64,000 nt of DNA. Source: an uncultured Chloroflexia bacterium (lineage in GTDB: Bacteria > Chloroflexota > Limnocylindria > Limnocylindrales > CSP1-4). The stretch is from the NCBI GenBank assembly GCA_963813535.1, contig CAWEZH010000001.1, positions 64,001 to 128,000 on the forward strand, written 5' to 3'. Position numbers and translations under genes: made by a program. The notes beneath the pieces were generated by a model. The model was not told where the DNA came from, ran no database searches, and worked only from the letters and a program-made list of their open reading frames with translations. Each line of letters opens with the position of its first letter. The stretch's first letter is position 1. Shown piece by piece: positions 36,662-54,175 of the stretch.

Positions 36662-37021
36662 TCAGGAACCCCGGTACGTCGTCATCGAGTACGACGCGAG
36701 CAGCAACGGGACGTGGTAGCTCCGCTCGATGTCGGTGATCCGCATGTCGACCGCCACCTTCGTGAAGAACGAGCCGTCCTCGTGCGCCACGTCGAATTCG
36801 ATCCGGTAGTCGCCGACCTGCAGCGGTCGCTCGAGGAGATCGCGGACTCGGCCGTCGGCGTCGGTCAGTGCCTGCGTCATCCGGATCGGTCCCTGGTCGC
36901 CGATGTCGGTTCGGTAGAGCGCGACGCGGACACCGGCCGCAGGCACCCCCCGTTCCGTGTCGAGGACATGCGTGCTGATCGTCGGGCGTTGCTCCTGCGG
37001 CGTTCCGGGCTCGGCGGTCAC
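36662..37021 (-). CDS. uraH: 5-hydroxyisourate hydrolase (transthyretin-like)
   Basis: ISTHVLDT..G.PAAG, TDADGR, YHVPLLL, C-terminal YRGS. Confidence 0.95.
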   Translation of the reverse strand: MTAEPGTPQEQRPTISTHVLDTERGVPAAGVRVALYRTDIGDQGPIRMTQALTDADGRVRDLLERPLQVGDYRIEFDVAHEDGSFFTKVAVDMRITDIERSYHVPLLLASYSMTTYRGS

Positions 37022-37035
37022 GCTATCCTCCCGGC

Positions 37036-37461
37036 ATGGGGACACTGCGGATCGAAGTCGGTGACCTGCACTTTAGCGCTCGCTGGGAGCCCGATGCTCC
37101 CCAGACGATCGAGGCGATCCGCCGGATGCTGCCGATCGATTCGCGACTGATCCACTGCCGTTGGTCCGGGGAATCGACCTGGATCCCGTACGGCGACTTC
37201 CGTCCGGGCATCGACTACGAGAACCACACCTCACACCCGTCCCCGGGCATGCTCGCCATGTACCCGGGCGGCATCAGCGAGTGCGAGATCTTCTTCCCGT
37301 ACGGCGCGTGCACGACGTCCTCGAAGGTCGGCCAGCTGGCGGCCAATCACTTCGCCACGATCATCCCTGACGACGACTGGCAGGATCGACTGCGGGAAGT
37401 CGGGCGCAGGGCACTCTGGGACGGCGCCCAACCGATCCGGATCAGCGAATCGGAGGCCTGA
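37036..37461 (+). CDS. DUF3830-family cyclophilin-like protein
   Basis: IHCRWSGES.WIP, ENHTSHP.PG...YPGGISECEI...YG...SKVGQLAANHF. Confidence 0.8.
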   Translation: MGTLRIEVGDLHFSARWEPDAPQTIEAIRRMLPIDSRLIHCRWSGESTWIPYGDFRPGIDYENHTSHPSPGMLAMYPGGISECEIFFPYGACTTSSKVGQLAANHFATIIPDDDWQDRLREVGRRALWDGAQPIRISESEA

Positions 37462-37555
37462 TGCAACTCGATGACAGGCCTGGGGATGCGCCGGCCGGGG
37501 ATGGCGGCTCAGGAGACGGCGGAGGCGGCGGCGGGGGTGACGGCGGCGGCGGCGG

Positions 37556-38959
37556 TTGACCGACCTCCTCATTCGCGGCGGTACGGTCGTGACCGCCGGC
37601 GGATCGCGAACAGCTGACCTGTCGGCCGACGGCGGTCGCATCACCGCCATCGAGCCATCCCTCGAGGGTCCGGCGGTGGAGGCCGACCGCGTGATCGATG
37701 CGACCGGGATGCTGGTGCTCCCCGGTGTCGTCGACGTCCACACGCATACCCGCGTCGCGAGCGACCAGGAGCCCGATCGCTTCTTCCAGGATTCAGTCGC
37801 TGCCGCGTACGGCGGGACGACGTCGTTCCTCTCGTTCAACAACCCCGGCACGGGATCATCGCCGGCGGCCGAACGCTCGCTCCTCACCGGCCTCACCGAA
37901 TGGCGCGCGGCGACGGATGCCGACAGCGCCATCGACTACGGTCTCTCGCTTGCCATCTCCGGCCATGCCGACGACCCGCTGGACGAGCTTCCGGCCACCA
38001 TCGACGCCGGTGTCGCCACCTCCAAGGCCTTCATGGTGTTCGACTTCCGCCTGCCCGACCAGCAGCTCTTCGATGCGATGCACGTGATGGCGGAGCGCGG
38101 CGGGATGCTGCAGGTGCACTGCGAGGATCCCATCCTCCTGGATGCCGCCGTCGCGTCGGCACTGCGGCGCGGAGACACGCTGCCACGTCACCACGCTACA
38201 TCGCGTCCGCCGTACGTCGAGGCTGTCGCGACGGCTCGGGCGCTCGCGTTCGCCCGTGCCACGGACTCGCCAGTACACGTCGTCCACCTGTCGTCGGCAG
38301 CGGCACTCGACGAGGTCAGGCGCGCCCGGGCCGCGGGCGTTCGGGTGACGGCGGAGACCTGTCCCCACTACCTCGTGCTGACCGAGGAGCGGTACGAGGA
38401 GCCCGACCCGGTGCGCTGTGCGTGCTACCTCATCTCGCCGCCGTTGCGCTCGGCGGCCGACCGCGACGCGCTGTGGGTGGGCCTGGCCGACGGTTCGCTC
38501 GATCTCGTGGCGACCGACCATGTCCCGGATCGCGTCGGCGTCGAGAAGGCCGAGGCTGGCGCCGGCGTCGCCTTCGACCGGATCAGCAACGGCGCACCCG
38601 GCATCGAGACGCTGCTGACACTCGTATACAGCGAGGGCGTCGCCCGCGGCCGGCTGACCGTGGAGCGGATGGTCGACCTGCTGTCGACCACGCCTGCCGC
38701 CCGCTTCGGCTTACCTCGCAAGGGTGCCCTGGAGGTCGGCCGCGACGCCGACATCGTGGTCTTCGACCCGTCAGCGCATCGCACGATCCGGGCCACCGAC
38801 CTCCACCACACCAGCGACTACACCCCCTACGAGGGGCTCGAGGTCACCGGTGCCGTCCGGGACGTGTTCGTCCGCGGGGACCCTGTCGTCACCGACGGCG
38901 CTTTCGTCGGTCGACGCGGGTTCGGGCGGTTCATCGAGCGAGGGCCGATCGGAGCCTAG
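37556..38959 (+). CDS. Cyclic amidohydrolase (dihydropyrimidinase/allantoinase family)
   Basis: PGVVDVHTH, GGTT, SKAFM, HCED, VHLSS, ETCPHYL, SPPLR, ATDH, DADIVVFDP. Confidence 0.88.
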   Translation: MTDLLIRGGTVVTAGGSRTADLSADGGRITAIEPSLEGPAVEADRVIDATGMLVLPGVVDVHTHTRVASDQEPDRFFQDSVAAAYGGTTSFLSFNNPGTGSSPAAERSLLTGLTEWRAATDADSAIDYGLSLAISGHADDPLDELPATIDAGVATSKAFMVFDFRLPDQQLFDAMHVMAERGGMLQVHCEDPILLDAAVASALRRGDTLPRHHATSRPPYVEAVATARALAFARATDSPVHVVHLSSAAALDEVRRARAAGVRVTAETCPHYLVLTEERYEEPDPVRCACYLISPPLRSAADRDALWVGLADGSLDLVATDHVPDRVGVEKAEAGAGVAFDRISNGAPGIETLLTLVYSEGVARGRLTVERMVDLLSTTPAARFGLPRKGALEVGRDADIVVFDPSAHRTIRATDLHHTSDYTPYEGLEVTGAVRDVFVRGDPVVTDGAFVGRRGFGRFIERGPIGA

Positions 38960-39509
38960 GGACGGCACTTCCACCGAGCATCACGTCGAGGCCCAACAGG
39001 ATCCAGCCGATCCCGTTGAGTGCGACCCCGATCAGCGAGATCGGGCCGAAGATCGTCGGGTTCGCGGGCGAGGTCAGCTCAAGATGGCTCATCCCGAGGA
39101 TCGCGAGCAGCGAGCCGACGCCGAGCGCGAGCGCTCCCCATCTGGTGACGGCCCCAAGTCGGAGGGTCACGAACCCGAACGCTGCGTCCGCGAGCCACAT
39201 CGCGAGCCCGGCGTAGAACATGACCAGCCGGAACTCGGGATCCGGGTCGGGTGCGACCGGCCGGCCGGTCGACAGCAGGATCATCACGAGGTACCAGCCG
39301 TTCGCGGCGATCGCCGCCGCGGCGACGAGAGACGACAGTCGCATCCCTGACGACGCCTGCCGTCGATGGACCGCGACAACCACGGCGATGGCACCGATGT
39401 TGAAGAGGACCAGGCGCAACGTGGAGACTCCGTCGGGGATGCCGATCACGAATGCGGACAGCAGGAACGTGCCACCGACGATGCCGGCTGCCCCAAGCAG
39501 GCGGCTCAT
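38931..39509 (-). CDS. Hypothetical membrane protein
   Basis: About 6 TMs; ATGA coupling to the upstream gene. Confidence 0.7.
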   Translation of the reverse strand: MSRLLGAAGIVGGTFLLSAFVIGIPDGVSTLRLVLFNIGAIAVVVAVHRRQASSGMRLSSLVAAAAIAANGWYLVMILLSTGRPVAPDPDPEFRLVMFYAGLAMWLADAAFGFVTLRLGAVTRWGALALGVGSLLAILGMSHLELTSPANPTIFGPISLIGVALNGIGWILLGLDVMLGGSAVPRLRSALAR

Positions 39510-40285
39510 GTCGGACTGGCCATGGCCGACGGACGGTCGAGCCGGACGGCCGCGATCCCGAGGACGATCCAGCCAGCGAGGAAGCAGGCGATGGCGCCAA
39601 GCATCAGGACCCCACCGACATCCCAGGCGACTGTGAACGTGGCCACCCAGGCGACTGCGCCCAACGCCGGACCGACGGCCAGCAGGACGGCTCCCGTCCG
39701 TGACAGAACGCCCGAGCGGAACGTGGCGAGGCCGAAGAGGGCGAACCCGATGATGGCGGCGACGCCGCCGAGCGCATAGGCCATGGCCGCGAAGGCCTGG
39801 CCCTCCACGGTCACGTCGCCCTCGTTCACGGCGATGAGCGCGATCATCCCGATCGTGTACGCGATCGCGCCGACGGCAGCAAAGGCGAATGCCGTCCAGA
39901 CGAGGCGCGGCAACGCTCGAGCCTGGAACGCGCTCAGGATGGTGAGAGCTATGAGGAGGGCTGCGAGCCCGACGAAGATCAAGGCGACGAGGGCACGGCC
40001 GTCCAGTGGTAGGGCCCCGAAGACGGTACTGAACCAGGAGACCCCGAGGATCACGGCCCCGAGGATGGCGGCGATGCCGCCGACACGAAGCGACATGGGA
40101 AGTCCCCTTCCTTTCGAGGGTGAGGCGCCGGGCCGGCGCGACCGGAGTCGCGCATCGAGCGCGCCGAGGAGGATGTCCGCCACGTCGTACGGTCCGAGCG
40201 GGCGCTCCTCGAGGATCGCCAGGAACTCGTCGCCGTAGCGCTCCCGCCAGCGGGCGGGATAGCAGCGGACCAGGATGGTTCTCAT
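39506..40285 (-). CDS. PadR-associated membrane protein
   Basis: N-terminal YPARWRERYGDEF motif typical of genes downstream of padR; about 6 TMs. Confidence 0.75.
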   Translation of the reverse strand: MRTILVRCYPARWRERYGDEFLAILEERPLGPYDVADILLGALDARLRSRRPGASPSKGRGLPMSLRVGGIAAILGAVILGVSWFSTVFGALPLDGRALVALIFVGLAALLIALTILSAFQARALPRLVWTAFAFAAVGAIAYTIGMIALIAVNEGDVTVEGQAFAAMAYALGGVAAIIGFALFGLATFRSGVLSRTGAVLLAVGPALGAVAWVATFTVAWDVGGVLMLGAIACFLAGWIVLGIAAVRLDRPSAMASPT

Positions 40286-40605
40286 GGCTCGGTGTTGCGG
40301 AGCTGTCGGAGCCCGCGCTGGGCGAACTCGGACAGGCCGTGGAGCTGTTCGGCGAGCATCGTCGCGCCGACCGCGGTCAGGCGGTACGGCCGGCGCCGGT
40401 CGATCGGCGGCAAGGGTTCGACGAAGCCCTGCTCCTCGAGTCGCGCGATGGCCGCGTACAGGGTGCCGGGACCCATCGGCCGGCCGGTCCCAGCCTCGAC
40501 GTCCTGCATGATCGCGTAGCCGTGCTTCGGCCCGTCGCTCAAGCTGACGAGGATGAGCAGTGACGGTTCGGTGAACCGTCCGAACTCAGGGGTCGTGGTA
40601 GACAT
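40282..40605 (-). CDS. PadR-family transcriptional regulator
   Basis: ILVSL.DGPKHGYAIM, GPGTLY..I.RL...G, RRPYRLT..G. Confidence 0.92.
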   Translation of the reverse strand: MSTTTPEFGRFTEPSLLILVSLSDGPKHGYAIMQDVEAGTGRPMGPGTLYAAIARLEEQGFVEPLPPIDRRRPYRLTAVGATMLAEQLHGLSEFAQRGLRQLRNTEP

Positions 40606-40674: not shown

Positions 40675-40677
40675 CCC

Positions 40678-42231
40678 CTAGTCCAGCATCCCGTAAGCGC
40701 GAAGGGTCAGAAAGTCGGCGAAGGCGTCGTCGAGGACGAGGTGGTCGAGCAGGTCCCAGGCGTCCTTGAGTCTCCCCTCGCGAATGCCGCCGAGTCGCTC
40801 CAGCTCCTCGTCACGGACGGCCGCGTACCGTTCGATCGATAGCACACCGCGCACGCGCCAGAGCCACAGCTGCGAACGCGCGATCTCGGCGGTCGCGGCG
40901 TCCTCCATGAGATTGTCGATCGCGGCCGCACCCGTGCCGCGCAGCCACGAGTCGAGGTACGCGAGGGCCACGCGCACGTTCGCGCGGATCCCGGCGTCGG
41001 TGACCTCGCCGCCCGGGACCGTGAAGTCCACGAGGGCAGATGCCTCCACGGACACCTCCGGCCGGAGCCGATCCTTCTGGTTCGGCAATGACCCGAGCAC
41101 CTGGTCGAAGATCTCCGTCGCGACCGGAACGAGGTCCGGATGCGCGACCCACGTCCCGTCGAAGCCATCGCGGGACTCGCGTTCCTTGTCGTCGCGCACC
41201 TTGGCGAGCGCGTTCTCGGTCACCTCCGGGTCGCGCCGGTTCGGGATGAACGCGGCCATGCCGCCGATCGCGTGCGCGCCGCGTCGATGGCACGTGGCGA
41301 CCAACCGTTCCGTGTAGGCGCGCATGAACGGCACGGTCATCGTGAGCTGCGACCGATCCGGCGACGACAGCGACGGCGACGAGCGGAACCGCTTGATGAC
41401 GCTGAACAGGTAGTCCCAGCGACCCGCGTTCAAACCGGCGGCGTGCTCGCGCAGCTCGTACAGGATCTCGTCCATCTCGAAGGCGGCCGTGATCGTCTCG
41501 ATCAGCACGGTCGCGCGGATCGAGCCGCGCGGGACGCCGAGCCGCTCCTGCGCCCACACGAACACCTCATTCCACAGCCGCGCTTCGTGATGCGACTCGA
41601 GCTTGGGCAGGTACAGGTACGGCCCCGAGCCACGTGCCACCCGCTCGGCGGCGTTGTGGAACAGGTACAGGCCGGCATCGAACAGTGAGGCCGACACCGG
41701 CACGCCGTCGACGAGGACGTGCGACTCGACGAGATGCCACCCGCGCGGTCGGACAACGAGCTGGGCGATGGTGTCGGCCAGCCGGTAGGACTTGCCCTCG
41801 GGCAATTCGAACGTGAGGGTGCCCCGGACAGCATCGATCAGGGCGGCCTGGCCGCCAACCACGTTCGCCCAGGTCGGCGAGAGCGCGTCCTCGAGGTCGG
41901 CCATGAACACGCGAGCACCCGAATTGAGCGCGTTGATCAGCATCTTCGGCTCGGCAGGACCGGTGATCTCGACCCGCCGGTCGTCGAAGTCGGCCGGGGC
42001 AGGCGCGACCGTCCACTCCGACTCGCGGATCCCGCGCGTGGCGGTCGGGAAGTCGAGCGGCGTTCCGGCATCGAGCTCCGCCTGACGCTCCTGGCGCCGG
42101 TGAAGAAGGTCGATGCGCACCTGGCCGAACCGCCGCTGGAGGTCGGCGATGAAGGCAAGGGCATCGTCGGTCAGGACGCGTTCAGCGCCGTCGACCGGCG
42201 GACCCGTGACGACCAGGCCGTCCAGTGCCAT
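40678..42231 (-). CDS. aceB: Malate synthase A
   Basis: [60 protein letters not shown]. Confidence 0.95.
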
Positions 42232-43079
42232 CAGGTCATCCCGGATCGTCGGACGGTCGCCTCGATCAGGCCGTGCGGCTCGGTGGTCGCGATGTAGACG
42301 GTCTTGTCGTTCGCGATCTCCATCGGCGACAGGTCGGCGAGCCAGTGATGGAGGTTGGGCAGCACCATCCGGACCTCGTCGAGCTCCTCGTGCCGCTCGA
42401 GCATCGCCTTTGCCATGATCCAGATGCTCGTCTGGACGCTGGGACTGTCGTGGTCGGCGAAGACCTCGAGCAGCGTCGTGCGCACATCGAGGAACGCAGC
42501 ATCGAGGTCGAGATCGGGCGCGCCGTACCGCCAGATGGCGGTCAGCTTCGTCGCCATCAGCCGGTCGTCGGTCTCGGGGAGCGTGGTGTAGCGGTCGCGC
42601 GGGAAGCCCTCGAACGCCGAGCGCGTGGTCTTCATGACGACGAGGTCCTCGACCCCGGCCTCGATGGTCGTCTCGGCAGGGCTCGCGGCGATGGTCGCCA
42701 CCCGGGTGCCCTCGCCGCCCTTGACGAACGCATCCGTCGCCGGGCTGCCCGCGACGTCGATCGGCTGCCAGTGGTGGGCGCGGATATTGACGGTCGCGCG
42801 GTCCACCTGGTCGAACCCCAGGAAGTGCTCAGCGAGTGCCTTGCCGTACGACTCGATCGCCCCGTCGAGATGGTCCAGCGCGAAGGCATAGGCAGTGTTC
42901 TTCATCGTGTCTGTCGCGACGACCATCGAGTTGTCGCCATCCGTGTGGGCCGAGGTGAAATCGCCCTCGAGGGCGATGGCCACCGTCAGATCGTGCAGCC
43001 GATGCGGGCTCGTGTCACGGCCGACGCGGACGACTCGGATGGCGGCCTTGCCGTAGCGATTGGCGCCCAGCTCGATCAC
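42231..43079 (-). CDS. pucL: Factor-independent urate hydroxylase (uricase)
   Basis: YGK, GDN...[44 protein letters not shown]. Confidence 0.95.
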
Positions 43080-43555
43080 GTGGACAGCTTCGCATGGCGG
43101 TCGATGGCGATGTCGACGACGGCGTCGAGGGCACGGTGGAGCTCGTCGGTGCGGTCCTCTTCGAGCGCGGCGGCCATCCCGGGGAGCAGCGCCTCGCGCG
43201 GTCGACCGGCCACGAAAACGCAGTACCGGAAGCCGTGGCGAGCCTCGTACGCGTCGTTGAGTCGCTCCAGTTCGGCGGCGACATCGACGTCGGCGCCGTG
43301 CCGGCTCCCCGGTCGTACCCCTGCTCGACGTAGCTCAATCGCCGACACCGTCCCGGGCGGCGCCCCAAGTCGAGGATGCGCATCGACCAGCTCGATCTGT
43401 TCGTCCTCCGGCATCTCGTGGGCGATCGCGCGGGCGGCGGCGAACAGCGCCTCGTCGTCGGCGTAGGGCCCGGCTGCGTGAAGGCGTGCGAGGAACCGGG
43501 GCGCGCCCTCGAACAGCGGTGCCATCTCTGCCGGGTTGGCTGCCCGGACAGTCAC
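43076..43555 (-). CDS. uraD: OHCU decarboxylase; internal compensating frameshifts at about 43340-43295
   Basis: LFEG.P, AHPRLG, LN.AYE..HGF.Y..FVAGR; the conserved LSYVEQG is in an alternate frame. Confidence 0.85.
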   Translation of the reverse strand: MTVRAANPAEMAPLFEGAPRFLARLHAAGPYADDEALFAAARAIAHEMPEDEQIELVDAHPRLGAPPGTVSAIELRRAGVRPGSRHGADVDVAAELERLNDAYEARHGFRYCVFVAGRPREALLPGMAAALEEDRTDELHRALDAVVDIAIDRHAKLST

Positions 43556-44538
43556 GGCGCCGTTTCCGGTCGCCAGGCCGGGAACGAATCGTAGGCGCCT
43601 TCGGTGAGGTAGATCGGTTCCTCGGTCCCGAGGACGATCGCGATGCGCGACCCGGTTCTGCCACCGTCGTTCGTGTAGGCGAGCCAGTCGCCCGACGGCG
43701 ACCACGATGGCGGCCAGTGGTCGTTCTCGGGCGTGTTCGTGAGGAGCGTCGGGCCCCGAGCGCCGTCTGGTCCGACCGTGTAGATATCTTCGTTCCAGGT
43801 CGCCGGATCGCTGTTCGCGTAGTCATTCGCGCTTGACACGAACGCGATCGCACCGAGCGAGTTGACCGCACCCTCCGAGGCGTTCGGGACCTGGATCGGC
43901 AGGATGTCGGGTTCGCCGCCCTCGACGCTGACATACGCCAGCTCGGTATCCGTGAAGTCGGCCCCCACAGTGACCAACAGGCGCTTCCCGTCCGGTGTCC
44001 ACGAGGGCCAGTTCCCGTCGCTGACGCGCCGTGCGTCGTCGGCTCCGTCCGACGAGCGGATCCACACGCTCGGCGCTCCCTGCCAGTCGTCGACGTACGC
44101 GATCAAGCGACCGTCGGGCGACCACGCGGGAGCGCCTTCGATGCCGGGGCCATCGGTGAGCTGGGTCAGGTGTCGGTCGGCTGCGGCCGGATCTGCATCG
44201 ATGAGCCAGATATCACCGCTCGTCGCGCTCTCGATGCTGACGAACGCCAGCCGGGAGCCGTCAGGCGACCAGGCCGTGAACAGCTCGATCTCGGGCGTGT
44301 CGGTCAGGCGCTGCAGGTCCGATCCGTCGGTCGCGACGCTCCAGATGTCGCCACCGGTCGGCGTGTTCGCCGAGGGATCGAATACCGTGCGCGCGAAGGC
44401 GATCCGCCCGTCGGGCGGCCTGGCAGCACTCGGCTCCGGGCTCGCAGGAGGTGGCGTCGACGGAGATGTGGCGGCCTGGCCGGCGCAGCCCGTCAGGATG
44501 CCGAGACCGAGCAGCGCGACGAGCGATGGCCGGTTCAC
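43552..44538 (-). CDS. TolB-like (PD40-repeat) beta-propeller lipoprotein
   Basis: LTGC lipobox; repeats AWSPDG, PAWSPDG, PSWTPDG, PSWSPSG, PAWRP. Confidence 0.85.
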   Translation of the reverse strand: MNRPSLVALLGLGILTGCAGQAATSPSTPPPASPEPSAARPPDGRIAFARTVFDPSANTPTGGDIWSVATDGSDLQRLTDTPEIELFTAWSPDGSRLAFVSIESATSGDIWLIDADPAAADRHLTQLTDGPGIEGAPAWSPDGRLIAYVDDWQGAPSVWIRSSDGADDARRVSDGNWPSWTPDGKRLLVTVGADFTDTELAYVSVEGGEPDILPIQVPNASEGAVNSLGAIAFVSSANDYANSDPATWNEDIYTVGPDGARGPTLLTNTPENDHWPPSWSPSGDWLAYTNDGGRTGSRIAIVLGTEEPIYLTEGAYDSFPAWRPETAP

Positions 44539-45395
44539 CAGCCGCCGGCGTCGCGGATGATGCGATGGAGCACCCGCGCGGCCACGAGGCGGCGGTACTC
44601 GGCAGTCGACCGGACGTCATCGATGGGTGCCAGCTCACCGGCGAGCGTCTCCGCCGCCAGATCCGCACTCTCGGGGTTGGGTGCTCGACCGTCCAGGGCC
44701 GCCTCTGTCGCCGCGGCACGGATCGGCGTGGCCGCCACGGAGCCCAGTGCCACGCGCACCTCGCGCCACGCGCCATCACCCTGCCATGCGACGCTCATCA
44801 CGACCTTGCTGATCGACTGCGCGCGGCGCGTCCCGACCTTCCGGAAGCGCATCTCCCGGTCCGACGCCAACGGGATGCGGATCCGAAGGACCAGTTCGTC
44901 GTGGGCGAGGGAGGTCTGCCGGTAGCCCGTCCAGAACTGCGCGGCCGGTACCTCGCGCTCACCCCGTTCCGAGCCGACCACGATCACCGCGTCTCCGGCG
45001 AGCAGTACGGGCAGGGTGTCGCCGGCGGGCGACGCGTTGGCGATGTTGCCCCCGAGGGTGCCGCGATTCTGGATCTGGGCGGCGCCGATCGTCGCGGCCG
45101 CATCGACCAGGGCCGGGACGTGCTCGCGGCACATCGCCGAACGGCGGATGTCCGTGTAGGTCGTCAGCGATCCCAGGGTCAGCGCGTCGCCGTCGATGGC
45201 GGTGCCCCGCAGCTCGTCGATGGCCCACAGGTCGACGACGCTGTCCGGCGCCGAGCCGAGCTCTCCGGTCAGCGCGACCATCAAGTCGGTGCCGCCGGCG
45301 ATCGGGCGGACGGGCGTCTCGGCGGAGCCGCTCGCCAGCGCGGCGTAGGCATCCGCGAGGGTGCGCGGGCTGGTGACGGGTGGCTCGATCGGCAT
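44535..45395 (-). CDS. Xanthine dehydrogenase family FAD-binding subunit
   Basis: IAGGTDL, IGAAQIQNRGTLGGNIANASPAGD, FRKVGTRRAQSISK, PIDDVRSTAEYR. Confidence 0.92.
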   Translation of the reverse strand: MPIEPPVTSPRTLADAYAALASGSAETPVRPIAGGTDLMVALTGELGSAPDSVVDLWAIDELRGTAIDGDALTLGSLTTYTDIRRSAMCREHVPALVDAAATIGAAQIQNRGTLGGNIANASPAGDTLPVLLAGDAVIVVGSERGEREVPAAQFWTGYRQTSLAHDELVLRIRIPLASDREMRFRKVGTRRAQSISKVVMSVAWQGDGAWREVRVALGSVAATPIRAAATEAALDGRAPNPESADLAAETLAGELAPIDDVRSTAEYRRLVAARVLHRIIRDAGGW

Positions 45396-46154: not shown

Positions 46155-48488
46155 GAGGCCCGCTCACGGATCGGCTCCGACTCGGCGGGCCGACGACCGG
46201 CCACATCGGGCCGACGCGCCATGGCGGCGATGACCCGCTCCGGACTTGCCGGCAGGTCGGTGATCCAGACTCCGGTCGCGTCGGCGATCGCGGCCACGAC
46301 GGCCGGCGCCCCGACGTCCATCGGGAGCTCCCCGACGCCCTTGGCGCCGTGGGGCGCGCCCGCGAACGGTGCCTCGACGAGGATCGTCGAGATGCGGGGC
46401 GCATCGAGCGCGGTCGGGATGATGTAGGTCGCGAGGCGATCGTTCAGATAGCGCCCGTCGCGCAGCTTGATCTCCTCGATCGTGGCGTAGCCGACGGCCT
46501 GCAGCGTGCCACCCTCGACCTGGCCCTCTGCGAGAACGGGATGGATCACGTGACCGATGTCGTCGGCCGCGACGACGTCCCGCACGTGCACCTCGCCGGT
46601 GTCGAGGTCGACGTCGACATGGGCCACGCAGGCCGCCCAGCCGAATGCCGGATATGCGTCGCCCGTATACGTCGCGTCGTCGAATGGCGTGCCGCCGGGG
46701 TACGGCTCGAACTGCTGGTCGATCCGGGTGGTGCCGTGATCTCGGGCGTAGGTCGACGCCGTCTCGGCGAACGAACCGCCGCGTCTCGGACTCGACCTGC
46801 TCGCGCAGCCGTTGCGCCGCCTTGATCAGCAGGCCACCGACGACCATCGCGGTGCGCGATGCGACGGTCGGCCCGGAGTCGGGGACGTAGGCGGTGTCCT
46901 GTGGAGCGATCTCGACCTCGCTCTCGTCGAGCCCGAGTGCCTCCGCGACGAGCTGCGGGAAGATCGTCTTGGTGCCCTGACCCATCTCGGTCGACGCGGT
47001 CAAGATTCGCACCCGACCCTCGGCGGTCAGCTCGATCGAGGCGACCGACGCGAGCTTCACCTCGCCCGAGCCGGTGAACCCCGCGCCGTGCCAGGCCAGG
47101 GCAAGCCCGACGCCCGAGGCCAGCCGATCCGGCTGGGTCCGCAGCGCCGACGCGGGGACCGTTCCCGAGCCGGCGCGCCCACGCCGCGCGTCATCGGTCC
47201 GTGTCCGCATGTGGACGAACTCCGCGGCCTCGGCGGCCCGTTCGAGGACCTCCTCGCCGGCGACACTGTCACGCAGCACCTGCCCGGTCGGGGTCGTGTC
47301 TCCGGGGCGGTACACGTTGCGCCGCCGGATGTCGAGCGGCGAGATGTCGAGTCGCTCGGCGATCCGGTTGAGGTGGGTCTCGGCGGCGAACTCGGTCTGC
47401 GGGGCCCCGAAGCCGCGGAATGCGCCGTTCGGCGGCGTGTTCGTCCGGGTCGCCTTGGCGCGGATGCGCACGTTCGGACACCGATACGGCCCGCCGGCAT
47501 GGATCGCGCCGCGCGACAGGACGACCGGCGTCAGCGTGCAGTACGCCCCACCGTCCATCACGACGTCGATCTCCTGTGCGATCAGCACCCCATCGTGGGT
47601 CACCCCGGTCCGGTGACGGACGATGGCCGGGTGTCGCTTGGTGGTGGCCGCGATGTCCTCGTGGCGGTCGTAGATCATGCGGACCGGCTTCTGCGCCTTC
47701 CTGGCAAGCAGCGCCGCATGGAGCGCGATGACGGACGGGAACTCCTCCTTCCCACCGAAGCCACCACCGGTCTCCGCCTGGACGACCCGGGCGCCGTCAT
47801 CGTCGAGCCCGAGACCGCGCTTCAGCGCTGCGTGGACGTAGTACGGGCACTGGAGCGAGCCGGTGACGGTGACGCCGCTCTCCGTCGGCACGGCGATCAT
47901 CGCGTTGTTCTCGATGTAGAGCTGCTCCTGGTGGCCCACGCGGTACTCGCCCTCGAGGATGAGGTCCGCGGCGGCGAACGCGGCATCCGGATCACCGCGG
48001 TCGATGGCGTACGCGGCGAAGACGTGGTCCGAGGAGTCAGGCTCGAAGACGGCCGGGAGCTTGGTGGTCCGGGGTGTGACCCGGCGCCTCGCTTCGCGCA
48101 GCGTGGCTCGATCCGGCGCGGCGACCAGCGCCAGCGGTTCCGCGTGATGGAGGATCTCGCCGCCGATCGGGACGAGGATCGGCTGGTCGTTCTTGATGGA
48201 GCTGACGATGTTGTCGCCCGGGATGTCGTCGGCGGTGACGACCACGACCCCTGACCAGTCGAACGCCGGATCGAGGTCGAGCGCGTCGAAGGTGGCGTGC
48301 GCGTCGGTCGAGCGGATCGTGGCGCCGTACCACGCGCCGGGGACGACGATGTCATCCGTATACAGCGCGGTCCCGGTCAGCTTGGCCGGGCCTTCCCGAC
48401 GAAGCGGCGCCGGCGGGCGGGCACGACCAGGGAGCGTGGTCCCGGGCGTGATGACGAGCGCGTCGGGGGCGGACGTCCGAGTCGTCAT
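46151..48488 (-). CDS. Xanthine dehydrogenase family molybdopterin-binding subunit; frameshift at about 46780
   Basis: GGGFGGKE, KRHP, AFRGFGAPQ, EMGQG, SGPTVASR; C-terminal GQVEGG...AKGVGE in the adjacent frame. Confidence 0.92.
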
Positions 48489-48681
48489 GCGGAGGGACGA
48501 TACCATCGGTCCGAGTTACGAACGGGCTGCCACAGGAGGCCTCGGTTCGGTGCGAAGCCGCACCGAGAATTGGTCCCGGGGCCTTGTCCGATGGTCCCAA
48601 CGGCCTCATCTGCCCGTATCATCCCGGCGACTAGGGGCCTGGTTGCTGCCCGGGGCCTGGTCGAAGGGGGGTTAGCGATCC

Positions 48682-49941
48682 ATGAATCTTCCACCTGCCA
48701 CGGTCTTGCTCATCGTCTTCATCGCTGCCGTGGCGAACCTCCTGGTGCTTCTCGCGGTCTCCGCGAGAGCTCGAGCCGGGCGCGCCAAACACGTCGAGGT
48801 CGAGGGCTTCATGTCCTCGTCGTACGGCAAGGACGGCACTGACCTCGACCAGGTCCCTACGAGCACGGATGGGGGGACGTCGACCACGGATGTGTCGACG
48901 CCCACCCGTCGCTACCCATGGGCGAACGGCAATGCCTGGTCCTCGCCTGTCTACGTGTCCGCGGGATCCGGCGTGCCTCCGCCCGCCGGGCCGTTCGAAG
49001 ACCCCGCCCCCAGTGCGCTCGAACAGCGCTCGCTCAGCCTTGACGCGGCTGAGGCCGACGCGTCGGCCGAGGCGGCGGCGGCGATCGCCGAGATGGACGC
49101 CGACACGATCGTCGCTGACGGCACCGACGACACCGATGCCATCGATGACGTCATCGCCTCGGTGATGGACGTCGCCGATATGCCGATCGTTGCCGTCGGC
49201 GAGCCCGTCGACGCCGAGATGAACGACATGAACGAGGAGGAAGGATCGACGATGGATGCCCAAGCCGCGGACACCGCCGTGGACGTTCCCGATACCGCTG
49301 TGGACGCCCCGGACACCGCCATCGAACCCGCCGTCGACGAAGCCGTCGACGACATGCATGAGACCGCGACGACCGCGTCGATGATGACCGTGCGCGGCCG
49401 CGACCCGCTGACCGGACTGCTGGACGCCCTGGCCTTCGAGGAGGTCATGGCCCAGGAGGAGGCCCGCGAACAGCGCTATGGGCATCCGGCGACCTTCATC
49501 CTCTTCGAGCTCGACGGACTGCCGAAACTCGTCGATCGCCTCGGGGCCGAGACTGGGGACCGGATCGAGACCGCTCTGGGTGACACGATCAGGCGACTCG
49601 CCCGGCGCGCGGATCACGTGGCGCGGCTGGAGCGCGGCCGATACGCCTTTCTGCTCCCGGTGACCGATGAGGTGGCCGCCATCAACTACATCGAGCGCGT
49701 CCGGCGCGCGTGCGAGCTGTGGCTGGAGTCGGGCGCCATCGCGATGCGCCCGGCGATCGGCTGGGCGAGCACGAGCGGCGACGCCGGTCTGTCTGGTGCG
49801 GTCCGCATCGCGACGGATCGCATGCGCCAGGAGCTTCGACGGAACGCCCGACAGGCAGGCGACGGGACGCCCGGCGTGGAGTCACTCGAAGCCGAGTCCC
49901 CCGACGGCCCTGAGGCCGTCGATGCCGACGTCGCCGCGTAG
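48682..49941 (+). CDS. Membrane-anchored degenerate GGDEF-domain protein (paralog 1)
   Basis: N-terminal TM, acidic linker, RDPLTGL, RRAD..ARLERGRY in place of GGDEF, IGWA. Confidence 0.78.
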   Translation: MNLPPATVLLIVFIAAVANLLVLLAVSARARAGRAKHVEVEGFMSSSYGKDGTDLDQVPTSTDGGTSTTDVSTPTRRYPWANGNAWSSPVYVSAGSGVPPPAGPFEDPAPSALEQRSLSLDAAEADASAEAAAAIAEMDADTIVADGTDDTDAIDDVIASVMDVADMPIVAVGEPVDAEMNDMNEEEGSTMDAQAADTAVDVPDTAVDAPDTAIEPAVDEAVDDMHETATTASMMTVRGRDPLTGLLDALAFEEVMAQEEAREQRYGHPATFILFELDGLPKLVDRLGAETGDRIETALGDTIRRLARRADHVARLERGRYAFLLPVTDEVAAINYIERVRRACELWLESGAIAMRPAIGWASTSGDAGLSGAVRIATDRMRQELRRNARQAGDGTPGVESLEAESPDGPEAVDADVAA

Positions 49942-49974
49942 CACCCTTTCGGCGCCGAGGCGGATCTCGCGATC

Positions 49975-50109
49975 GGCGATGTTGCCCCCGCAGGGGATCT
50001 CGCGCTGGCGCAAACCACGGCGCATGGCCCTTGCGCCGGTCATCTCGTGGAGCGCGTGCGCCAGGGAGAGCAGCCGCGCATCGCGCACGACCTGGCCGAG
50101 GATGCGCAC
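49975..50109 (-). pseudogene. Decayed duplicate fragment of the D-aminoacylase 3' region
   Basis: Translates RILGQVVRDARLLSLAHALHEMTGARAMRRGLRQREIPCGGNIAD versus RILGQFVRDDRLLSMEQAVHKMTGAAAARLGFRQRGTIREGNIAD at about 51400-51530. Confidence 0.85.
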
Positions 50110-50330
50110 CTAGGGATCGTCCGTCCGCGGGCCTGAACCCCACCAGACCGACCCGCTCTCCACCAGACCGCACCAGACTGCCCGGCACGGTGACACGCTG
50201 CACCGTGAATCGGTCCCGCCCGGTATCCCGGATCGTCCTTTGGCAGGACCGGCGCGTATCATCCACGCCCGCCGGACACCGCGGTCCGCCGCGAGCGGTC
50301 CGGAGTGACAGCGTGGGGGTCACCCAGGAC

Positions 50331-51224
50331 ATGGACATCTCTCCGAGCACGTTGCTCGTCATCGCCGTCGCCACGACGACAGCCAGCTTGCTGATCGTCG
50401 TCGGGTCGGCAACCTGGAGCCGCACGGATCGCATGCGCCGCATGGCGACCGCGGATTCACTGCCGATGACGTCCCCGGTCGATTCGATGCGTGCGGGCGC
50501 GTGGTCGGGGCCGCGGTCGATGGCGTCGAGCGACGTCCGACAAGGGGCTGACGCGGGCCCGGAGCAACGGTCGTTCGATCTGACGGAGCCGGTCGATCGC
50601 GAGACCGTCGTCGGCGAACGCGGGCTACGCATCGCCGAAAACCCCGACGCCGGGGGCGCCGAGGGCATCGATGCCACGGATGCCGAGTCGCCGCCGGCTC
50701 GCAGCGCGGCGGCCGGGACTCGCGGTCGCGATGCCCTGACTGGTCTGCTGGATGCGGTCGCGTTCGAGGACGTGCTGGCCCACGAGGATGCCCGCGAGGG
50801 GCGCTACCGCCGACCCGCGACCGTCGTCATGCTCGAACTCGACGGCCTCGACCGCCTCGTCGAGCGCCTCGGGCCGGCCGCTGGTGATCGCGTCGAACCA
50901 GCCCTCGCGGATACGATCTCGCGCCTTGCTCGGCGCGCTGACTACGTCGCCCGTCTTGGCCCGGGACACTTCGCAGTCCTGATGCCCGAGACCGACGAGA
51001 TCGTGGCCATCAACTACATCGAACGGGTCCGTCGGGCGTGCGAGCTGTGGCTCGAATCGGGCGCGATCGCCATGCGCCTGGCGATCGGCTGGGCGAGCAC
51101 GAGCGGGGATGTGTCGCTGGCGGCGGTGATGCGCACCGCGGCGGACCGGATGCACATCGAGCGGCGGCGGAATGCCCGGCTCCTCGCGAGTGTCGTGGCG
51201 GGGGTCGATCCGCCTCGGTCCTGA
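50331..51224 (+). CDS. Membrane-anchored degenerate GGDEF-domain protein (paralog 2)
   Basis: N-terminal TM, RDALTGL, RRAD..ARLGPGHF; AINYIERVRRACELWLESGAIAMR is identical to paralog 1. Confidence 0.78.
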   Translation: MDISPSTLLVIAVATTTASLLIVVGSATWSRTDRMRRMATADSLPMTSPVDSMRAGAWSGPRSMASSDVRQGADAGPEQRSFDLTEPVDRETVVGERGLRIAENPDAGGAEGIDATDAESPPARSAAAGTRGRDALTGLLDAVAFEDVLAHEDAREGRYRRPATVVMLELDGLDRLVERLGPAAGDRVEPALADTISRLARRADYVARLGPGHFAVLMPETDEIVAINYIERVRRACELWLESGAIAMRLAIGWASTSGDVSLAAVMRTAADRMHIERRRNARLLASVVAGVDPPRS

Positions 51225-51227
51225 GCG

Positions 51228-52820
51228 TCAGTCGACGCCGCGACGGATCGCGCGACCCGGTGTCGCACCGGTGTGCTCGCCGTCGCGAACGACCGGGATT
51301 CCATTCACGATGACGTGGTCGATACCGGTCGGGAACCGGCGCGGCTCGTCGTAGGTGGCGTTGCTGCGTACGGTGGCTGGGTCGAACACGACGAGATCGG
51401 CGATGTTGCCCTCGCGGATGGTGCCGCGCTGACGGAAGCCCAGACGCGCGGCCGCGGCGCCGGTCATCTTGTGGACCGCCTGCTCCATGGAGAGCAGTCG
51501 GTCATCACGCACGAACTGGCCGAGGATGCGGGGGTAGGAACCGTATGTCCGCGGGCTTGGCTTGGCCCCGATGAACGTCGAGTCGGTGCCGACCATCCCG
51601 ACGGGGTGCTTCACGAACTCGGGGAGTGATTCGCTCCACGGACCGCTCGTCACCTGGTTGACGCCGAGATCCTCGGCGAGGAGCAAGTCACAGATCGCGT
51701 CGACCGGGTCCTGCCCCGTCTCCGCCATCACGTCGGCGAGCGTGCAAGCCTCCCAGCGCATGAGGTCCGATCTGGTGAAGTTGCCGAGTCGGAGGTCCGA
51801 CCAACCGGCCGCGCTGGTGTACGCCGGACCCATCTCGATCCTCAGACGCTCGCGCGTCGCCCGGTCCGCGAGGCGTTCCTTCAAGGCGACCGGTCCACCG
51901 GCCTGGACCCATTGCGGGAGCTGGATGAGCAGCCGGGTGCTCGCCCACTCGTAGGGATACGTGTCGAACGTGACGTCGAGACCCTCGGCGCGGGCATCAT
52001 CGACGAGGGCGAGCATCCGGTCGGGGCCGCCGGGGTGCGTCTGGCGGTGATAGAAGTGGGTGATGTGGGCGGGAGCGCCTGACCGGCGCCCGATCTCGAT
52101 CGCTTCCCTGAACGGATCGAGGTACCGGTCGCCCAGCGTGTAGCGGACGTGGCTGTGATAGAAGCCGCCCGACTGGCCGGCAGTGGCCGCCAGCGCGGCA
52201 AGCTCCTCGGTCGGCGCGAAGCTGCCGGGCGGATAGTCGAGGCCCGAGCTCAGGCCGACGGCGCCATCGGCCATCGCGTCACGGAGCGTGCCCGCCATCC
52301 GGTCCAGCGCGGCCGCGTCGGCCGGAACGTCGTCCCACCCGAGGGCGTCGATGCGCAGCTGGCTGTTCCCGACCAGCGTCCCGACGTTGACGCTGACAGT
52401 GCCGTCGTACTTCGCCAGGTAATCGGCGACCGTCCGCCAGTCATAAGCGATGTCCGGTCGGCCATCGAGCCCGGAGTCGAGGTGGACGAAGGCCTCGAGG
52501 TCCTCGCGGCGGCGGAACGGCGCGAAGCCATTGCCATCGACGCCGACGATCTCCGTCGTGACGCCCTGGCGGACCTTGGGTTCGTGGAGCGGTTCGGCCA
52601 GGATGACCAGACCGCCATGGCTGTGGAGATCGATAAAACCGGGGGCGACGACGCGGCCGGTCGCGTCGATGGTGGTCCGCGCGTTTGCAGGTGGCTCTGC
52701 GTCGGGGTCGAGGCGCCGGATGCGATCGCCCTCGACGATGACGGTTCCTGGCCGCCCGGGCGCACCGGTCCCGTCGACGATGGTGCCGCCCGTGATCAGG
52801 AGCTCGACGCTGTCGATCAC
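51228..52820 (-). CDS. N-acyl-D-amino-acid deacylase family amidohydrolase
   Basis: APGFIDLHSH, QGVTTE, GLSSGLDYPPG, DTYPY, PRTYGSYPRILG, ADLVVFDP. Confidence 0.88.
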   Translation of the reverse strand: MIDSVELLITGGTIVDGTGAPGRPGTVIVEGDRIRRLDPDAEPPANARTTIDATGRVVAPGFIDLHSHGGLVILAEPLHEPKVRQGVTTEIVGVDGNGFAPFRRREDLEAFVHLDSGLDGRPDIAYDWRTVADYLAKYDGTVSVNVGTLVGNSQLRIDALGWDDVPADAAALDRMAGTLRDAMADGAVGLSSGLDYPPGSFAPTEELAALAATAGQSGGFYHSHVRYTLGDRYLDPFREAIEIGRRSGAPAHITHFYHRQTHPGGPDRMLALVDDARAEGLDVTFDTYPYEWASTRLLIQLPQWVQAGGPVALKERLADRATRERLRIEMGPAYTSAAGWSDLRLGNFTRSDLMRWEACTLADVMAETGQDPVDAICDLLLAEDLGVNQVTSGPWSESLPEFVKHPVGMVGTDSTFIGAKPSPRTYGSYPRILGQFVRDDRLLSMEQAVHKMTGAAAARLGFRQRGTIREGNIADLVVFDPATVRSNATYDEPRRFPTGIDHVIVNGIPVVRDGEHTGATPGRAIRRGVD

Positions 52821-54175
52821 GCGGTGACCTTACCGGGTGAGAGCAGGCCCTCCAGTCGACGGCCGCGGACCCATGCCGCCCGGACCATGTCGGGATGCGC
52901 CCGGAAGATCATGCGGCTCGCCAGGTCCTCGGGGTCGTCGTCGACCACGCCCGGGATCGGCGCGATCATCGACGGATCGACCGCGATCACGTCCGCTTCC
53001 TTGCCCGTCTCGAGCGAGCCGATCGTGTCACCGAGCCCGAGCGCCTCGGCGCCGCCGAGCGACCCCAGCCGCAGCCAGTCGAGGGGCTTCAGCACATGCC
53101 CCTGTTCGAGGCCGGCCACGCGTCGCGCGTTCTGCGCATACGAGCCGACCCGCATCACGCTGAAGATCGAGAGGTCGGGCCCGCCCGCGACGTCCGACCC
53201 GAGGCCGAGCCGCAGCCCCGCCTCGACATAGCGGCCGAGGGGCATCACGCCGGATGCCAGGAACAGGTTCGAGATCGGACAGTGCGCCACCCGGGTCCCG
53301 CTCTCGACGAGCCGGCCGAGCTCGCGGTCCGATAGATGGACCGCATGCGCGAGCACGGTCCGCTCGCCGAGCCCGCCGGCGCGGTCGTAGACGTCGACGT
53401 AGTCGAGCGCTTCCGGGAACAGCCGTTCGACCTCCGCGATCTCACCGTGATCCTCGGACACATGCGTCTGCCAGTACGAACCGGTCGAGGCGGCGAGGGC
53501 CGCCGATTCGCGCAGCAGGTCGGCCGTGCACGAGATCGCAAACCGCGGGGTGACGGCGTATCGGAGTCGACCATCGTCGGCCCCATGCCACCGGTCGATC
53601 AGGCGAGCACTCTCGGCGAGCGACCGGTCGAGGATGGTCGAGGGGTCGATCGTCGGGTCGTAGGTGATGCGATCCATCATCACCTTGCCGACGATCGCAC
53701 GGATCCCGTGCGCCTCGGCCGCCCGGAACGTGGCATCGAGGCTGGCCTCGTACACGGCACCGTACACCAGCGCGGTGGTGGTCCCGGCGGCGGCGAAGGC
53801 GCGCCAGGCGGCCGGCGCGACGCGCTCGGCGGTCTCGACGTCGAACCCGCGCTCCAACGGGAAGATGTAGCGCTCGAGCCACGCCAGCAGGTCCATCCCG
53901 GCACCGAGCCCCGCGTTCGGGAGCTGGGGCAGATGGGCGTGGAGGTCGACCATGCCCGGCATCAGCACCCAGGGCCGCAGGTCGATCGCGTCCGCAACCG
54001 CGTCCTGTCGACCCGACGTCGCCCCGGCCGAGACGATCCGGCCGCCTCCGTCGACCTCCACGAGCGCATCGGGTTCGTGACGCATGCCACCGTCCCCGAG
54101 CGGTGTCAGCAGACGACCGCGCAGGACGAACGGGGGCGTGGTCGGCAGTTCCACGCGCGACAGGCTACCGGACAT
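52817..54175 (-). CDS. guaD: Guanine deaminase
   Basis: PGMVDLHAHLPQ, LLAWL..YIFP.E, VTPRFAISC, QTHVSE, AHAVHL, HCPISNLFL.SG, LGSDVAGG. Confidence 0.9.
   Translation of the reverse strand: MSGSLSRVELPTTPPFVLRGRLLTPLGDGGMRHEPDALVEVDGGGRIVSAGATSGRQDAVADAIDLRPWVLMPGMVDLHAHLPQLPNAGLGAGMDLLAWLERYIFPLERGFDVETAERVAPAAWRAFAAAGTTTALVYGAVYEASLDATFRAAEAHGIRAIVGKVMMDRITYDPTIDPSTILDRSLAESARLIDRWHGADDGRLRYAVTPRFAISCTADLLRESAALAASTGSYWQTHVSEDHGEIAEVERLFPEALDYVDVYDRAGGLGERTVLAHAVHLSDRELGRLVESGTRVAHCPISNLFLASGVMPLGRYVEAGLRLGLGSDVAGGPDLSIFSVMRVGSYAQNARRVAGLEQGHVLKPLDWLRLGSLGGAEALGLGDTIGSLETGKEADVIAVDPSMIAPIPGVVDDDPEDLASRMIFRAHPDMVRAAWVRGRRLEGLLSPGKVTA

Follow-up and report, generated by a model that had tools for sequence, protein, structure and literature searches.

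The stretch of DNA analysed here, 64,000 nucleotides long (the window), comes from an uncultured Limnocylindria-type Chloroflexota genome of soil and holds, between positions 36662 and 54175, a set of genes that to judge from their families forms a purine-to-glyoxylate catabolic island. No canonical enzyme leading from allantoate to glyoxylate was found with them or elsewhere in the genome, and this hole in the pathway is real and genome-wide. The explanation that we propose, and to which we give an even chance as a whole, is that three non-canonical proteins of the island would take allantoin to glyoxylate: a cyclic amidohydrolase of the D-hydantoinase type, a D-aminoacylase-like enzyme of the Amidohydro_3 family, and a small protein carrying the domain of unknown function DUF3830.

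The source genome (G000) counts 3.28 Mb on 3 contigs, 92.9% complete and 0.66% contaminated; the island lies on the 209-kb contig C1, in a window of about 70% G+C. Genes were mapped from the G+C of codon positions together with Pfam and NCBIfam scans, and those of the purine pathway are the following.

36662-37021 (open reading frame open to 37045), minus strand: uraH, 5-hydroxyisourate hydrolase (PF00576, 91.4 bits; TIGR02962, 97.8 bits against a cut-off of 87.45)
37036-37461, plus strand: DUF3830 protein, 141 aa (PF12903, 86 bits against a gathering score of 26; model positions 3-142 of 143)
37556-38959, plus strand: cyclic amidohydrolase of the D-hydantoinase/dihydropyrimidinase type (TIGR02033, 426 bits against 393.25)
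40678-42231, minus strand: malate synthase A (TIGR01344, 689.8 bits, above the equivalog cut-off of 594.5)
42231-43079, minus strand: urate oxidase, or uricase (PF01014, 178.3 bits)
43076-43525, minus strand: uraD, 2-oxo-4-hydroxy-4-carboxy-5-ureidoimidazoline (OHCU) decarboxylase (PF09349, 96.7 bits; probable start ATG 43525)
44535-45584, minus strand: xanthine dehydrogenase (XDH), FAD subunit (PF00941 and PF03450)
45654-46154, minus strand: XDH, 2Fe-2S subunit (PF01799 and PF00111)
46164-48506, minus strand: XDH, Mo subunit (PF02738, PF20256 and PF01315)
51228-52820, minus strand: Amidohydro_3 enzyme, D-aminoacylase-like, 530 aa (PF07969, 95.1 bits against 29.7)
52817-54175, minus strand: guanine-deaminase-like amidohydrolase, guaD (TIGR02967, 352.8 bits against 375.4; NF006679, 346.1 bits against 351)

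All the genes named by an initial annotation of the island were recovered in place by Pfam and NCBIfam, and so was the arrangement it described, DUF3830 being divergent from uraH and upstream of the cyclic amidohydrolase. Family membership assigns the conversion of guanine and xanthine to urate to the guaD-like enzyme and XDH, that of urate to (S)-allantoin to uricase, UraH and UraD, and that of glyoxylate to malate to malate synthase A, the glyoxylate sink. The guaD product scores narrowly under both equivalog cut-offs, so that we call it only guanine-deaminase-like. XDH has the full Mo, FeS and FAD set of Pfam domains; its top NCBIfam match is PucD (354 bits, under the equivalog cut-off of 783.65), and the gene context suggests its substrate.

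Absence of the canonical enzymes between allantoate and glyoxylate

Profiles of allantoicase (PF03561), AllA (PF04115), AllD (PF02615) and the M20 enzyme AllC (TIGR03176 and TIGR01879) found no match in G000. For the ureidoglycine aminohydrolase (UGlyAH, TIGR03214) the top match of the genome was a cupin at 27.6 bits, against a cut-off of 200, and for PuuE (TIGR03212) a deacetylase at 75.6 bits, against 424.6. The top AllB-like gene is the cyclic amidohydrolase of the window itself, at about 292 bits and under the AllB cut-off. Searching G000 by tblastn with an allantoicase (from genome G083), an AllA (from G041) and an AllC-type enzyme (from locus L060) returned nothing, at E ≤ 1e-5 for AllC. 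The positive controls were recovered: allantoicase in G083, AllA in G041 and in Escherichia coli, UGlyAH in E. coli and in Deinococcus radiodurans, and AllC-type enzymes in 41 of 201 genomes of the class. The initial annotation had recognised no canonical allantoate or ureidoglycolate enzyme in the window; this extends to the whole genome by profile searches and tblastn, and of the genes that it proposed to look for there—alc, allC, allE, allA and puuE—none was found.

These absences are not due to one incomplete assembly, because they are repeated across a sample of 201 genomes of the class, each at least 85% complete, which includes G000 and in which families f1 to f4 are tallied. Allantoicase was detected in a single genome (G083, which has no DUF3830), AllA also in a single one (G041), and UGlyAH in none. 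In the genus of G000, matches to allantoicase, AllC-type enzymes and UGlyAH were found in none of the 13 other genomes. The class tallies take in some genomes marked unpublished (G058, G079, G087, G096, G121, G175 and G163), on which the conclusions do not depend.

The fate of urea bears on the missing steps. Urease is present in G000 and in 7 of the 13 genomes of its genus; it was found in none of the 38 genomes of f3 and in 2 of the 79 of f4, families in which 35 and 76 genomes, respectively, carry DUF3830. Urea carboxylase above its cut-off occurs in 0 of the 201 class genomes, the matches at E ≤ 1e-150 being biotin-carboxylase domains only.

DUF3830 in purine gene clusters

DUF3830 is encoded in single copy in G000. 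At E ≤ 0.001 it matches 3593 database proteins, of which the top 120 are 75-94% identical to it; 822 clusters at 50% identity match as well, and so do at least 596 coding stretches among the GTDB species genomes. Its gene context was counted at the best 80 genome loci; 30 further loci, seen with 1.5-kb flanks, gave other gene orders (110 in total). At least one purine gene accompanies DUF3830 at 79 of the 80 loci: uraH at 77, divergent and within 600 bp at 64; uraD at 66; uricase at 50 and a PuuD-type urate oxidase at 7; malate synthase at 45. At 65 of them a cyclic amidohydrolase, of the dihydropyrimidinase-like or of the AllB type, lies downstream on the same strand within 2.5 kb. No homologue of allantoicase or AllA was found at any of the 110 loci. 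Within the class, DUF3830 is carried by 151 of the 201 genomes (38/72 in f1, 0/10 in f2, 35/38 in f3 and 76/79 in f4).

The association does not depend on a single gene order, since several arrangements occur, at least four, under record titles of Chloroflexota, Gemmatimonadota and Actinomycetota. Actinomycetota-titled loci read uraH-uraD-puuD-DUF3830, with a 4-nt overlap; other Chloroflexota loci read uraH-uraD-uricase-DUF3830, or DUF3830-AllC-AllB with no urate genes inside the 1.5-kb flanks; in Gemmatimonadales-titled loci a Cupin_5 gene and those for XDH, malate synthase and isocitrate lyase come after DUF3830-AllB-AllC. DUF3830 is firmly a core member of urate/allantoin clusters, and very probably a protein of the ureide pathway.

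Two types of cluster can be distinguished by what accompanies DUF3830. Type A, found in f3, in Gemmatimonadales-titled loci and in others, has the order DUF3830-AllB-AllC; its full core is uraH-uraD-uricase/puuD beside DUF3830-AllB-AllC-guaD-like. Its AllB (L060) reaches 532.6 bits with TIGR03178 and is 35% identical to the cyclic amidohydrolase of the window, and its M20 enzyme, of the allantoate-amidohydrolase/hydantase family, reaches 393 bits with TIGR01879 and 388-406 bits with NF006771. Type B, which is that of this window and of f1 and f4, combines DUF3830 with a D-hydantoinase-type enzyme and an Amidohydro_3 enzyme, without AllC. DUF3830 is the sole uncharacterised core gene of type A clusters. 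Their other neighbours—response regulators and pyrimidine-biosynthesis genes (DHODH, PyrK-like, CarB)—were rejected from their families as candidates for the pathway.

Since many relatives pair DUF3830 with true AllB and AllC in one operon, DUF3830 is unlikely to act on allantoate. The initial annotation had offered allantoate or ureidoglycolate as its substrate: comparative genomics does make DUF3830 the best candidate for the region of the gap, but the allantoate step is best set aside. In type A clusters the steps without an enzyme come after AllC only, namely ureidoglycine (UGlyAH in 0 of 201 genomes) and ureidoglycolate (AllA in 1 of 201). We therefore lean, by a little, towards DUF3830 acting between allantoate and glyoxylate; that it would act specifically on ureidoglycine is a tentative assignment, somewhat less likely than not.

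The same evidence could be read as pointing to a ureidoglycolate lyase that releases urea, in which case DUF3830 would be analogous to AllA, or to allantoicase in its second activity, the deamination of ureidoglycine being then spontaneous or due to another protein. AllA is missing from 200 of the 201 class genomes and from all five DUF3830 carriers reached via loci with other taxon titles, five in which UGlyAH is likewise never above its cut-off; urease is at hand in G000 and half of its genus (7/13), the malate synthase of the cluster requires glyoxylate, and the fold relatives described below do carbinolamine/iminium chemistry. However, urease is lacking or rare precisely in f3 and f4, where DUF3830 is nearly constant, and with urease so scarce and no urea carboxylase above cut-off, a role in releasing urea would be wasteful for most carriers, in which half of the nitrogen in ureides would be lost as urea. 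On these grounds we rank an ammonia-releasing ureidoglycine step first and the lyase, which we judge unlikely, second.

Could DUF3830 act earlier, between urate and allantoin? In several lineages it closes an operon that opens with uraH-uraD and continues with uricase or puuD, and at 64 of the 80 loci it has a divergent uraH within 600 bp, as would suit a protein acting on 5-hydroxyisourate, on OHCU or on some by-product of urate oxidation. Yet all three known steps of this module are already encoded in the island, we know of no further step from urate to allantoin, and the DUF3830-AllC-AllB operons carry no urate genes inside their flanks. Of the readings considered here this one is the least probable.

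A role at the level of allantoin itself, either as a non-homologous allantoin racemase or as a partner that assists the following cyclic amidohydrolase without being a catalyst itself, would account for the 65 loci at which this amidohydrolase lies just downstream; racemases are classically part of hydantoinase operons, and the cyclophilin fold is known among isomerases. Nevertheless 15 of the 80 loci have no amidohydrolase after DUF3830, and in Actinomycetota the coupling is to puuD. Moreover UraH and UraD yield (S)-allantoin stereospecifically, so that these clusters could do without a racemase, while hardly any of them does without DUF3830. Its conserved Arg and Glu also point to a substrate that bears a charge, unlike neutral allantoin. 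We consider this role improbable, to the same degree as the lyase.

The sequence of DUF3830 is compatible with one function in both types of cluster. Kept at 95% or more in type A and type B alike are W43, E46, E62, T65, Y76, S81, E82, E84, Y89, S96, N104, H105, R124, W128 and Q132, eight of them (W43, E46, E62, E82, E84, N104, H105 and R124) making up an invariant polar set, and the only systematic difference between the types is at position 17; as all conserved polar positions are shared, a single function is likely.

The AlphaFold (AF2) model of the protein (pLDDT 96.9, pTM 0.90) predicts a cyclophilin-like beta-barrel fold as in 3KOP, to which it compares with a Foldseek E of 4.6e-9 and a TM score of 0.82, and with a VIA Z of 18.9 for a root-mean-square deviation of 2.0 over 136 residues. 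Next come KslB (VIA Z 16.8) and McbB (16.2), both Pictet-Spenglerases, then TM1367 (13.6) and the cyclophilins (about 10, at 10-15% identity); PxpBC/KipI proteins (3MML, 2ZP2, 5DUD) stand at 5.5-6.4 and urea carboxylase (3VA7) at 4.5. The initial annotation had likened DUF3830 to the carboxyltransferase domain of urea carboxylase; the cyclophilin-like fold stands, but the likeness is remote, with a Z of 4.5 against 16-17 for the Pictet-Spenglerases. By analogy of fold, the predicted structure would be closest to enzymes of amine/carbonyl (iminium) chemistry on carboxylates, which we take as a lead only.

In sequence searches, DUF3830 found no NCBIfam match at E ≤ 0.001, a single-sequence search of the PDB gave only chance TPR matches (a profile search reached 3KOP), and a search of the ESM Atlas returned DUF3830 clusters only. 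As TIGR03214 gives no match and the fold is not that of a cupin, DUF3830 may be at most an analogue, not a member, of the bicupin UGlyAH. A predicted complex between DUF3830 and the hydantoinase-type enzyme scored 0.00, with no verdict from the tool, and counts neither for nor against binding.

Some observations on DUF3830 loci stand apart. A Cupin_5/DUF985 gene lies beside AllC in four Gemmatimonadales-titled loci (L060, L063, L068 and L070), and an unclassified bicupin directly follows DUF3830 in an Actinomycetes-titled locus (L090:10402-11349); in their own lineages both add to the candidates for the enzymes missing at ureidoglycine or ureidoglycolate. A search for fusions (Rosetta-stone) among ten long DUF3830 proteins was fruitless: nine contain DUF3830 alone and one a phage baseplate OB domain besides, all ten being probably miscalled or frameshifted reading frames.

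Record titles of such metagenome-assembled genomes are a poor guide to taxonomy, because that of locus L065, 'uncultured Steroidobacteraceae', contradicts its class membership: the locus has the contig coordinates and the DUF3830 sequence of a genome of the class studied here (G185/G205). The titles 'Anaerolineaceae' and 'Saccharimonadales' are probably mislabelled likewise. Relatives of the island with proteins 86-97% identical are titled 'uncultured Chloroflexota' and 'Candidatus Limnocylindrales'.

The two amidohydrolases and the proposed route

The cyclic amidohydrolase noted by the initial annotation is present and can be refined to the D-hydantoinase/dihydropyrimidinase type; it is not an AllB, as it passes TIGR02033 and fails TIGR03178 (292.7 bits against a cut-off of 357.85). 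Among solved structures it comes nearest to D-hydantoinases, at 320 bits (1NFG), the allantoinases following at 200 bits. The motifs DVHTH, SKAFM, VHCED, HVVHLS and ATDHVP are present and invariant across 20 sequences; we take them to hold the ligands of a binuclear metal centre—HxH, a carbamylated Lys, two His and an Asp. This dihydropyrimidinase-like gene fills the slot after DUF3830 that AllB holds in relatives. By our own derivation from the Cahn-Ingold-Prelog (CIP) system, (S)-allantoin corresponds in geometry to a D-5-substituted hydantoin, which would suit a D-hydantoinase. The enzyme is probably the allantoinase of the island. A second hydantoinase/dihydroorotase-like gene of G000 (C2:1425135-1426497), 38% identical to it, matches in two frames, possibly through a frameshift or a misassembly.

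The Amidohydro_3 enzyme is nearest, among solved structures, to a D-aminoacylase and an N-acyl-D-Glu deacylase (1M7J and 3GIP, 225-229 bits), and reaches 200.9 bits with NF006560, for a cut-off of 340. Aligned to 9G5M it keeps HxH, the two His and the Asp, and the NCG Cys, presumably a metal ligand in 9G5M, is replaced by Asp; about 100 of its residues remain unaligned to D-acylases. The active-site motifs of both amidohydrolases thus appear intact from the alignments, save for this change of Cys to Asp. A deacylase chemistry would fit allantoate, because allantoate is formally an N-carbamoyl amino acid.

The distribution of the Amidohydro_3 enzyme is complementary to that of AllC. AllC-type enzymes were found in 41 of the 201 class genomes: 37 of the 38 of f3, 2 of the 72 of f1 (both devoid of DUF3830), none of the 10 of f2 and 1 of the 79 of f4. 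Some f3 genomes hold a second M20 copy, which could be a ureidoglycolate amidohydrolase. Strong Amidohydro_3 matches (best E ≤ 1e-143; listed identities of 52-95%) coincide in f1 with DUF3830, being found in its 38 carriers and in no other f1 genome; in f4 they occur in 76 of the 79 genomes, and all 38 f3 genomes have just weaker paralogues (listed identities of 39-42%). Among the 181 genomes of a phylum sample centred on L065, which is Chloroflexota with no Pseudomonadota in it, matches of at least 63% identity occur in 14, all DUF3830-positive; DUF3830 carriers outside the class have Amidohydro_3 paralogues of 35-45% only. Comparative genomics, with orthologues in genomes that have DUF3830 and lack AllC, makes this enzyme the best candidate, in line with the initial annotation.

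Its coupling to guaD, also put forward there, is true in this window, where the two reading frames overlap by GTGA, but it is lineage-specific: in f4, a sister family, the gene heads an Amidohydro_3-xdhMo-FeS-FAD-malate synthase operon, away from guaD, so that the tie is to the purine island as such. In a tree of 105 DUF3830 sequences (quick search, midpoint root) all type B rows fall into a single clade of 72 rows (SH-aLRT 99), which lies among those of type A. AllB and AllC would thus seem to have given way only once to the hydantoinase-type enzyme and Amidohydro_3, as would fit a joint replacement. Whether the Amidohydro_3 enzyme replaces AllC seems to us an evenly balanced matter.

Put together, the route would run as follows. 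The D-hydantoinase-type enzyme would open the ring of allantoin in AllB's stead; the Amidohydro_3 enzyme would take one carbamoyl group off allantoate in AllC's stead, giving ureidoglycine, NH3 and CO2; DUF3830 would carry the unstable ureidoglycine to ureidoglycolate or glyoxylate, in the stead of the cupin UGlyAH; and the last ureido group would leave as urea, or as NH3 and CO2. A more detailed joint reading, which we find rather doubtful, would make DUF3830 a new family of small cyclophilin-like ureide enzymes, Pictet-Spenglerase-like and with no cofactor predicted, converting ureidoglycine (possibly ureidoglycolate) by aminal/iminium chemistry and replacing the cupin UGlyAH in purine-linked carriers; in Limnocylindria it would have joined the recruited D-hydantoinase and D-acylase-like enzyme in a 'D-series' allantoin route, maybe via (R)-ureidoglycine.

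Several points weigh against this route. The stereochemistry is one: the product of AllC is (S)-ureidoglycine, and a D-specific deacylase should give, by our own CIP derivation, the (R) form, which makes a single DUF3830 specificity for types A and B awkward. At the position of DUF3830 aligned with the catalytic Glu of McbB and KslB there appears, going by residue offsets only, a Ser or Lys. The complementarity of AllC and Amidohydro_3 amounts to one observation and is statistically weak, the swap being essentially one event. G041, of the same genus as G000, has AllA in addition to DUF3830. DUF3830 is cotranscribed with urate oxidase in Actinomycetota and some Chloroflexota, which would also be in keeping with an earlier role, at urate or allantoin. 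For three steps—allantoate, ureidoglycine and ureidoglycolate—there are two new candidates in type B genomes. Lastly, G000 is 92.9% complete, and the assignment of steps is an inference.

It could also be that nothing is replaced: the pathway would end at allantoin or allantoate, or the canonical genes would lie in the unassembled 7% of G000, and the two amidohydrolases would serve dihydropyrimidines, hydantoins or N-acyl-D-amino acids. The cyclic amidohydrolase does pass the equivalog cut-off of dihydropyrimidinase, and the Amidohydro_3 family is broad, its paralogues of 35-45% being common in the phylum. However, the same absences recur in all 13 genomes of the genus and across f1 and f4, malate synthase A is embedded in the cluster, the dihydropyrimidinase-like gene occupies exactly the slot of AllB, and G000 has no M20 carbamoylase to complete a pyrimidine route. 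We hold this possibility to be very unlikely.

Related systems, neighbouring genes and significance

The canonical ureide pathway of bacteria and plants—AllB, AllC or allantoate amidohydrolase (AAH), the bicupin UGlyAH (AllE/YlbA), then AllA or ureidoglycolate amidohydrolase (UAH)—has the same inputs and the same end product, glyoxylate, and the related type A clusters retain its AllB and AllC beside DUF3830. G000 differs in having no AllB-type enzyme, M20 enzyme, cupin UGlyAH, AllA, allantoicase or AllD, with the hydantoinase-type enzyme, Amidohydro_3 and DUF3830 in their places. What we describe is a variant of the known ureide pathway, drawn from enzyme families not previously tied to it. 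The pairing of a D-hydantoinase with a D-specific deacylase, the hydantoinase process, is another parallel, both amidohydrolases of the window being nearest to D-hydantoinase and D-aminoacylase structures; the window genes, however, stand in a purine island and not in a hydantoin one.

A precedent for a non-orthologous enzyme at the allantoate step comes from Rubrobacter xylanophilus, which, according to Barba et al. (2013; PMC4016543), lacks all canonical enzymes from allantoate to glyoxylate, and for which the same authors propose an aspartate carbamoyltransferase (ATCase)-like ureidoglycine carbamoyltransferase acting with a carbamate kinase. G000 has three genes of the ornithine carbamoyltransferase (OTCase) family. 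The first passes the OTCase equivalog cut-off (TIGR00658); the second (C1:171475-173400, locus L128), about 70 kb from the cluster, reaches 562 bits with NF003286 against 515 and is followed by a carbamate kinase, the pair being probably a module of the arginine-deiminase type; the third is taken to be pyrB from its dihydroorotase-like neighbour alone. As none of them is in the purine island, we do not favour a Rubrobacter-type carbamoyltransferase route in G000.

As for the relatives of DUF3830, 3KOP, a 'protein with a cyclophilin-like fold' of unknown function from Arthrobacter sp. FB24, shares with it the fold, a profile E of 1.9e-7 and the motifs EN.T and GN.F; it differs by an identity of 20-21% and by HGKYARNE where purine-linked DUF3830 proteins have (H/V)RWSGE. 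McbB and KslB, which among characterised enzymes come nearest in fold, act on tryptophan and have no purine link; each consists of two domains, counts about 290-310 residues and is 18-21% identical to DUF3830. According to the KslB paper (PMC12012969), the active site combines a catalytic Glu with Arg/Lys anchors of the carboxylate in iminium chemistry. Such chemistry would be near to the cleavage of the aminal carbon of ureidoglycine or ureidoglycolate, again as a lead only.

In the literature searched, supplementary tables lying outside its reach, no paper names DUF3830 or PF12903, and titles and abstract openings contain nothing relevant that joins 'cyclophilin-like' with 'allantoin'. The text of a 2026 review of urate catabolism (PMC13751858) does not contain DUF, cyclophilin, hydantoinase, aminoacylase or Chloroflex.

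The remaining genes in and around the island are listed here.

33341-34591, minus strand: conserved open reading frame of 416 aa, soluble, coiled-coil-like, no Pfam match, D...EAK motif seen by eye
34666-36654: S8 peptidase gene, between the 416-aa frame and uraH
38931-40285, minus strand: two membrane proteins (hydrophobic translations)
40282-40605, minus strand: PadR-family regulator (PF03551, 47.4 bits)
43552-44538, minus strand: PD40/TolB-like beta-propeller lipoprotein (signal peptide ending LTGC)
48682-49941 and 50031-51224, plus strand: two GGDEF paralogues
54631-58793, minus strand: DAO-family FAD oxidoreductase and NMT1/THI5-type ABC transporter (binding protein, permease, ATPase), upstream of guaD on the same strand

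The probable start of uraH is GTG 37021, preceded by GGGAGGA. With this start the divergent start codons of uraH and DUF3830 are 14 bp apart, which implies that both promoters lie within the neighbouring gene or that the DUF3830 mRNA is leaderless. An Rfam scan of the window found no RNA family. The genes for the PadR regulator and the membrane proteins occur at just 2 of the 80 related loci, and the lipoprotein gene, placed between the XDH FAD subunit and uraD, has a homologue there at 1 of the 80 (L023). The GGDEF paralogues are 67% identical over about 163 residues; between them, at 49972-50172 on the minus strand, a stretch of 69 residues matches residues 407-475 of the Amidohydro_3 enzyme at 52% identity, as if the GGDEF/Amidohydro_3 junction had once been duplicated locally and had left this remnant. 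The 416-aa frame directly follows uraH in several relatives, with Ku and LigD genes nearby; it was rejected as a member of the pathway, having no Pfam match and a nuclease-like motif by eye and travelling with Ku and LigD.

The breakdown of purines and ureides is among the main routes by which nitrogen is recycled in soil, and many soil metagenomes contain Limnocylindria-type Chloroflexota. If the proposed route is true, a domain of unknown function with at least 596 encoding stretches and 822 clusters would receive a role, and the cyclophilin-like fold a third enzyme chemistry. The automatic names 'dihydropyrimidinase' and 'D-aminoacylase-like' would be misdirected annotations, and the metabolic reconstructions that score these organisms as allantoin-negative would be wrong.

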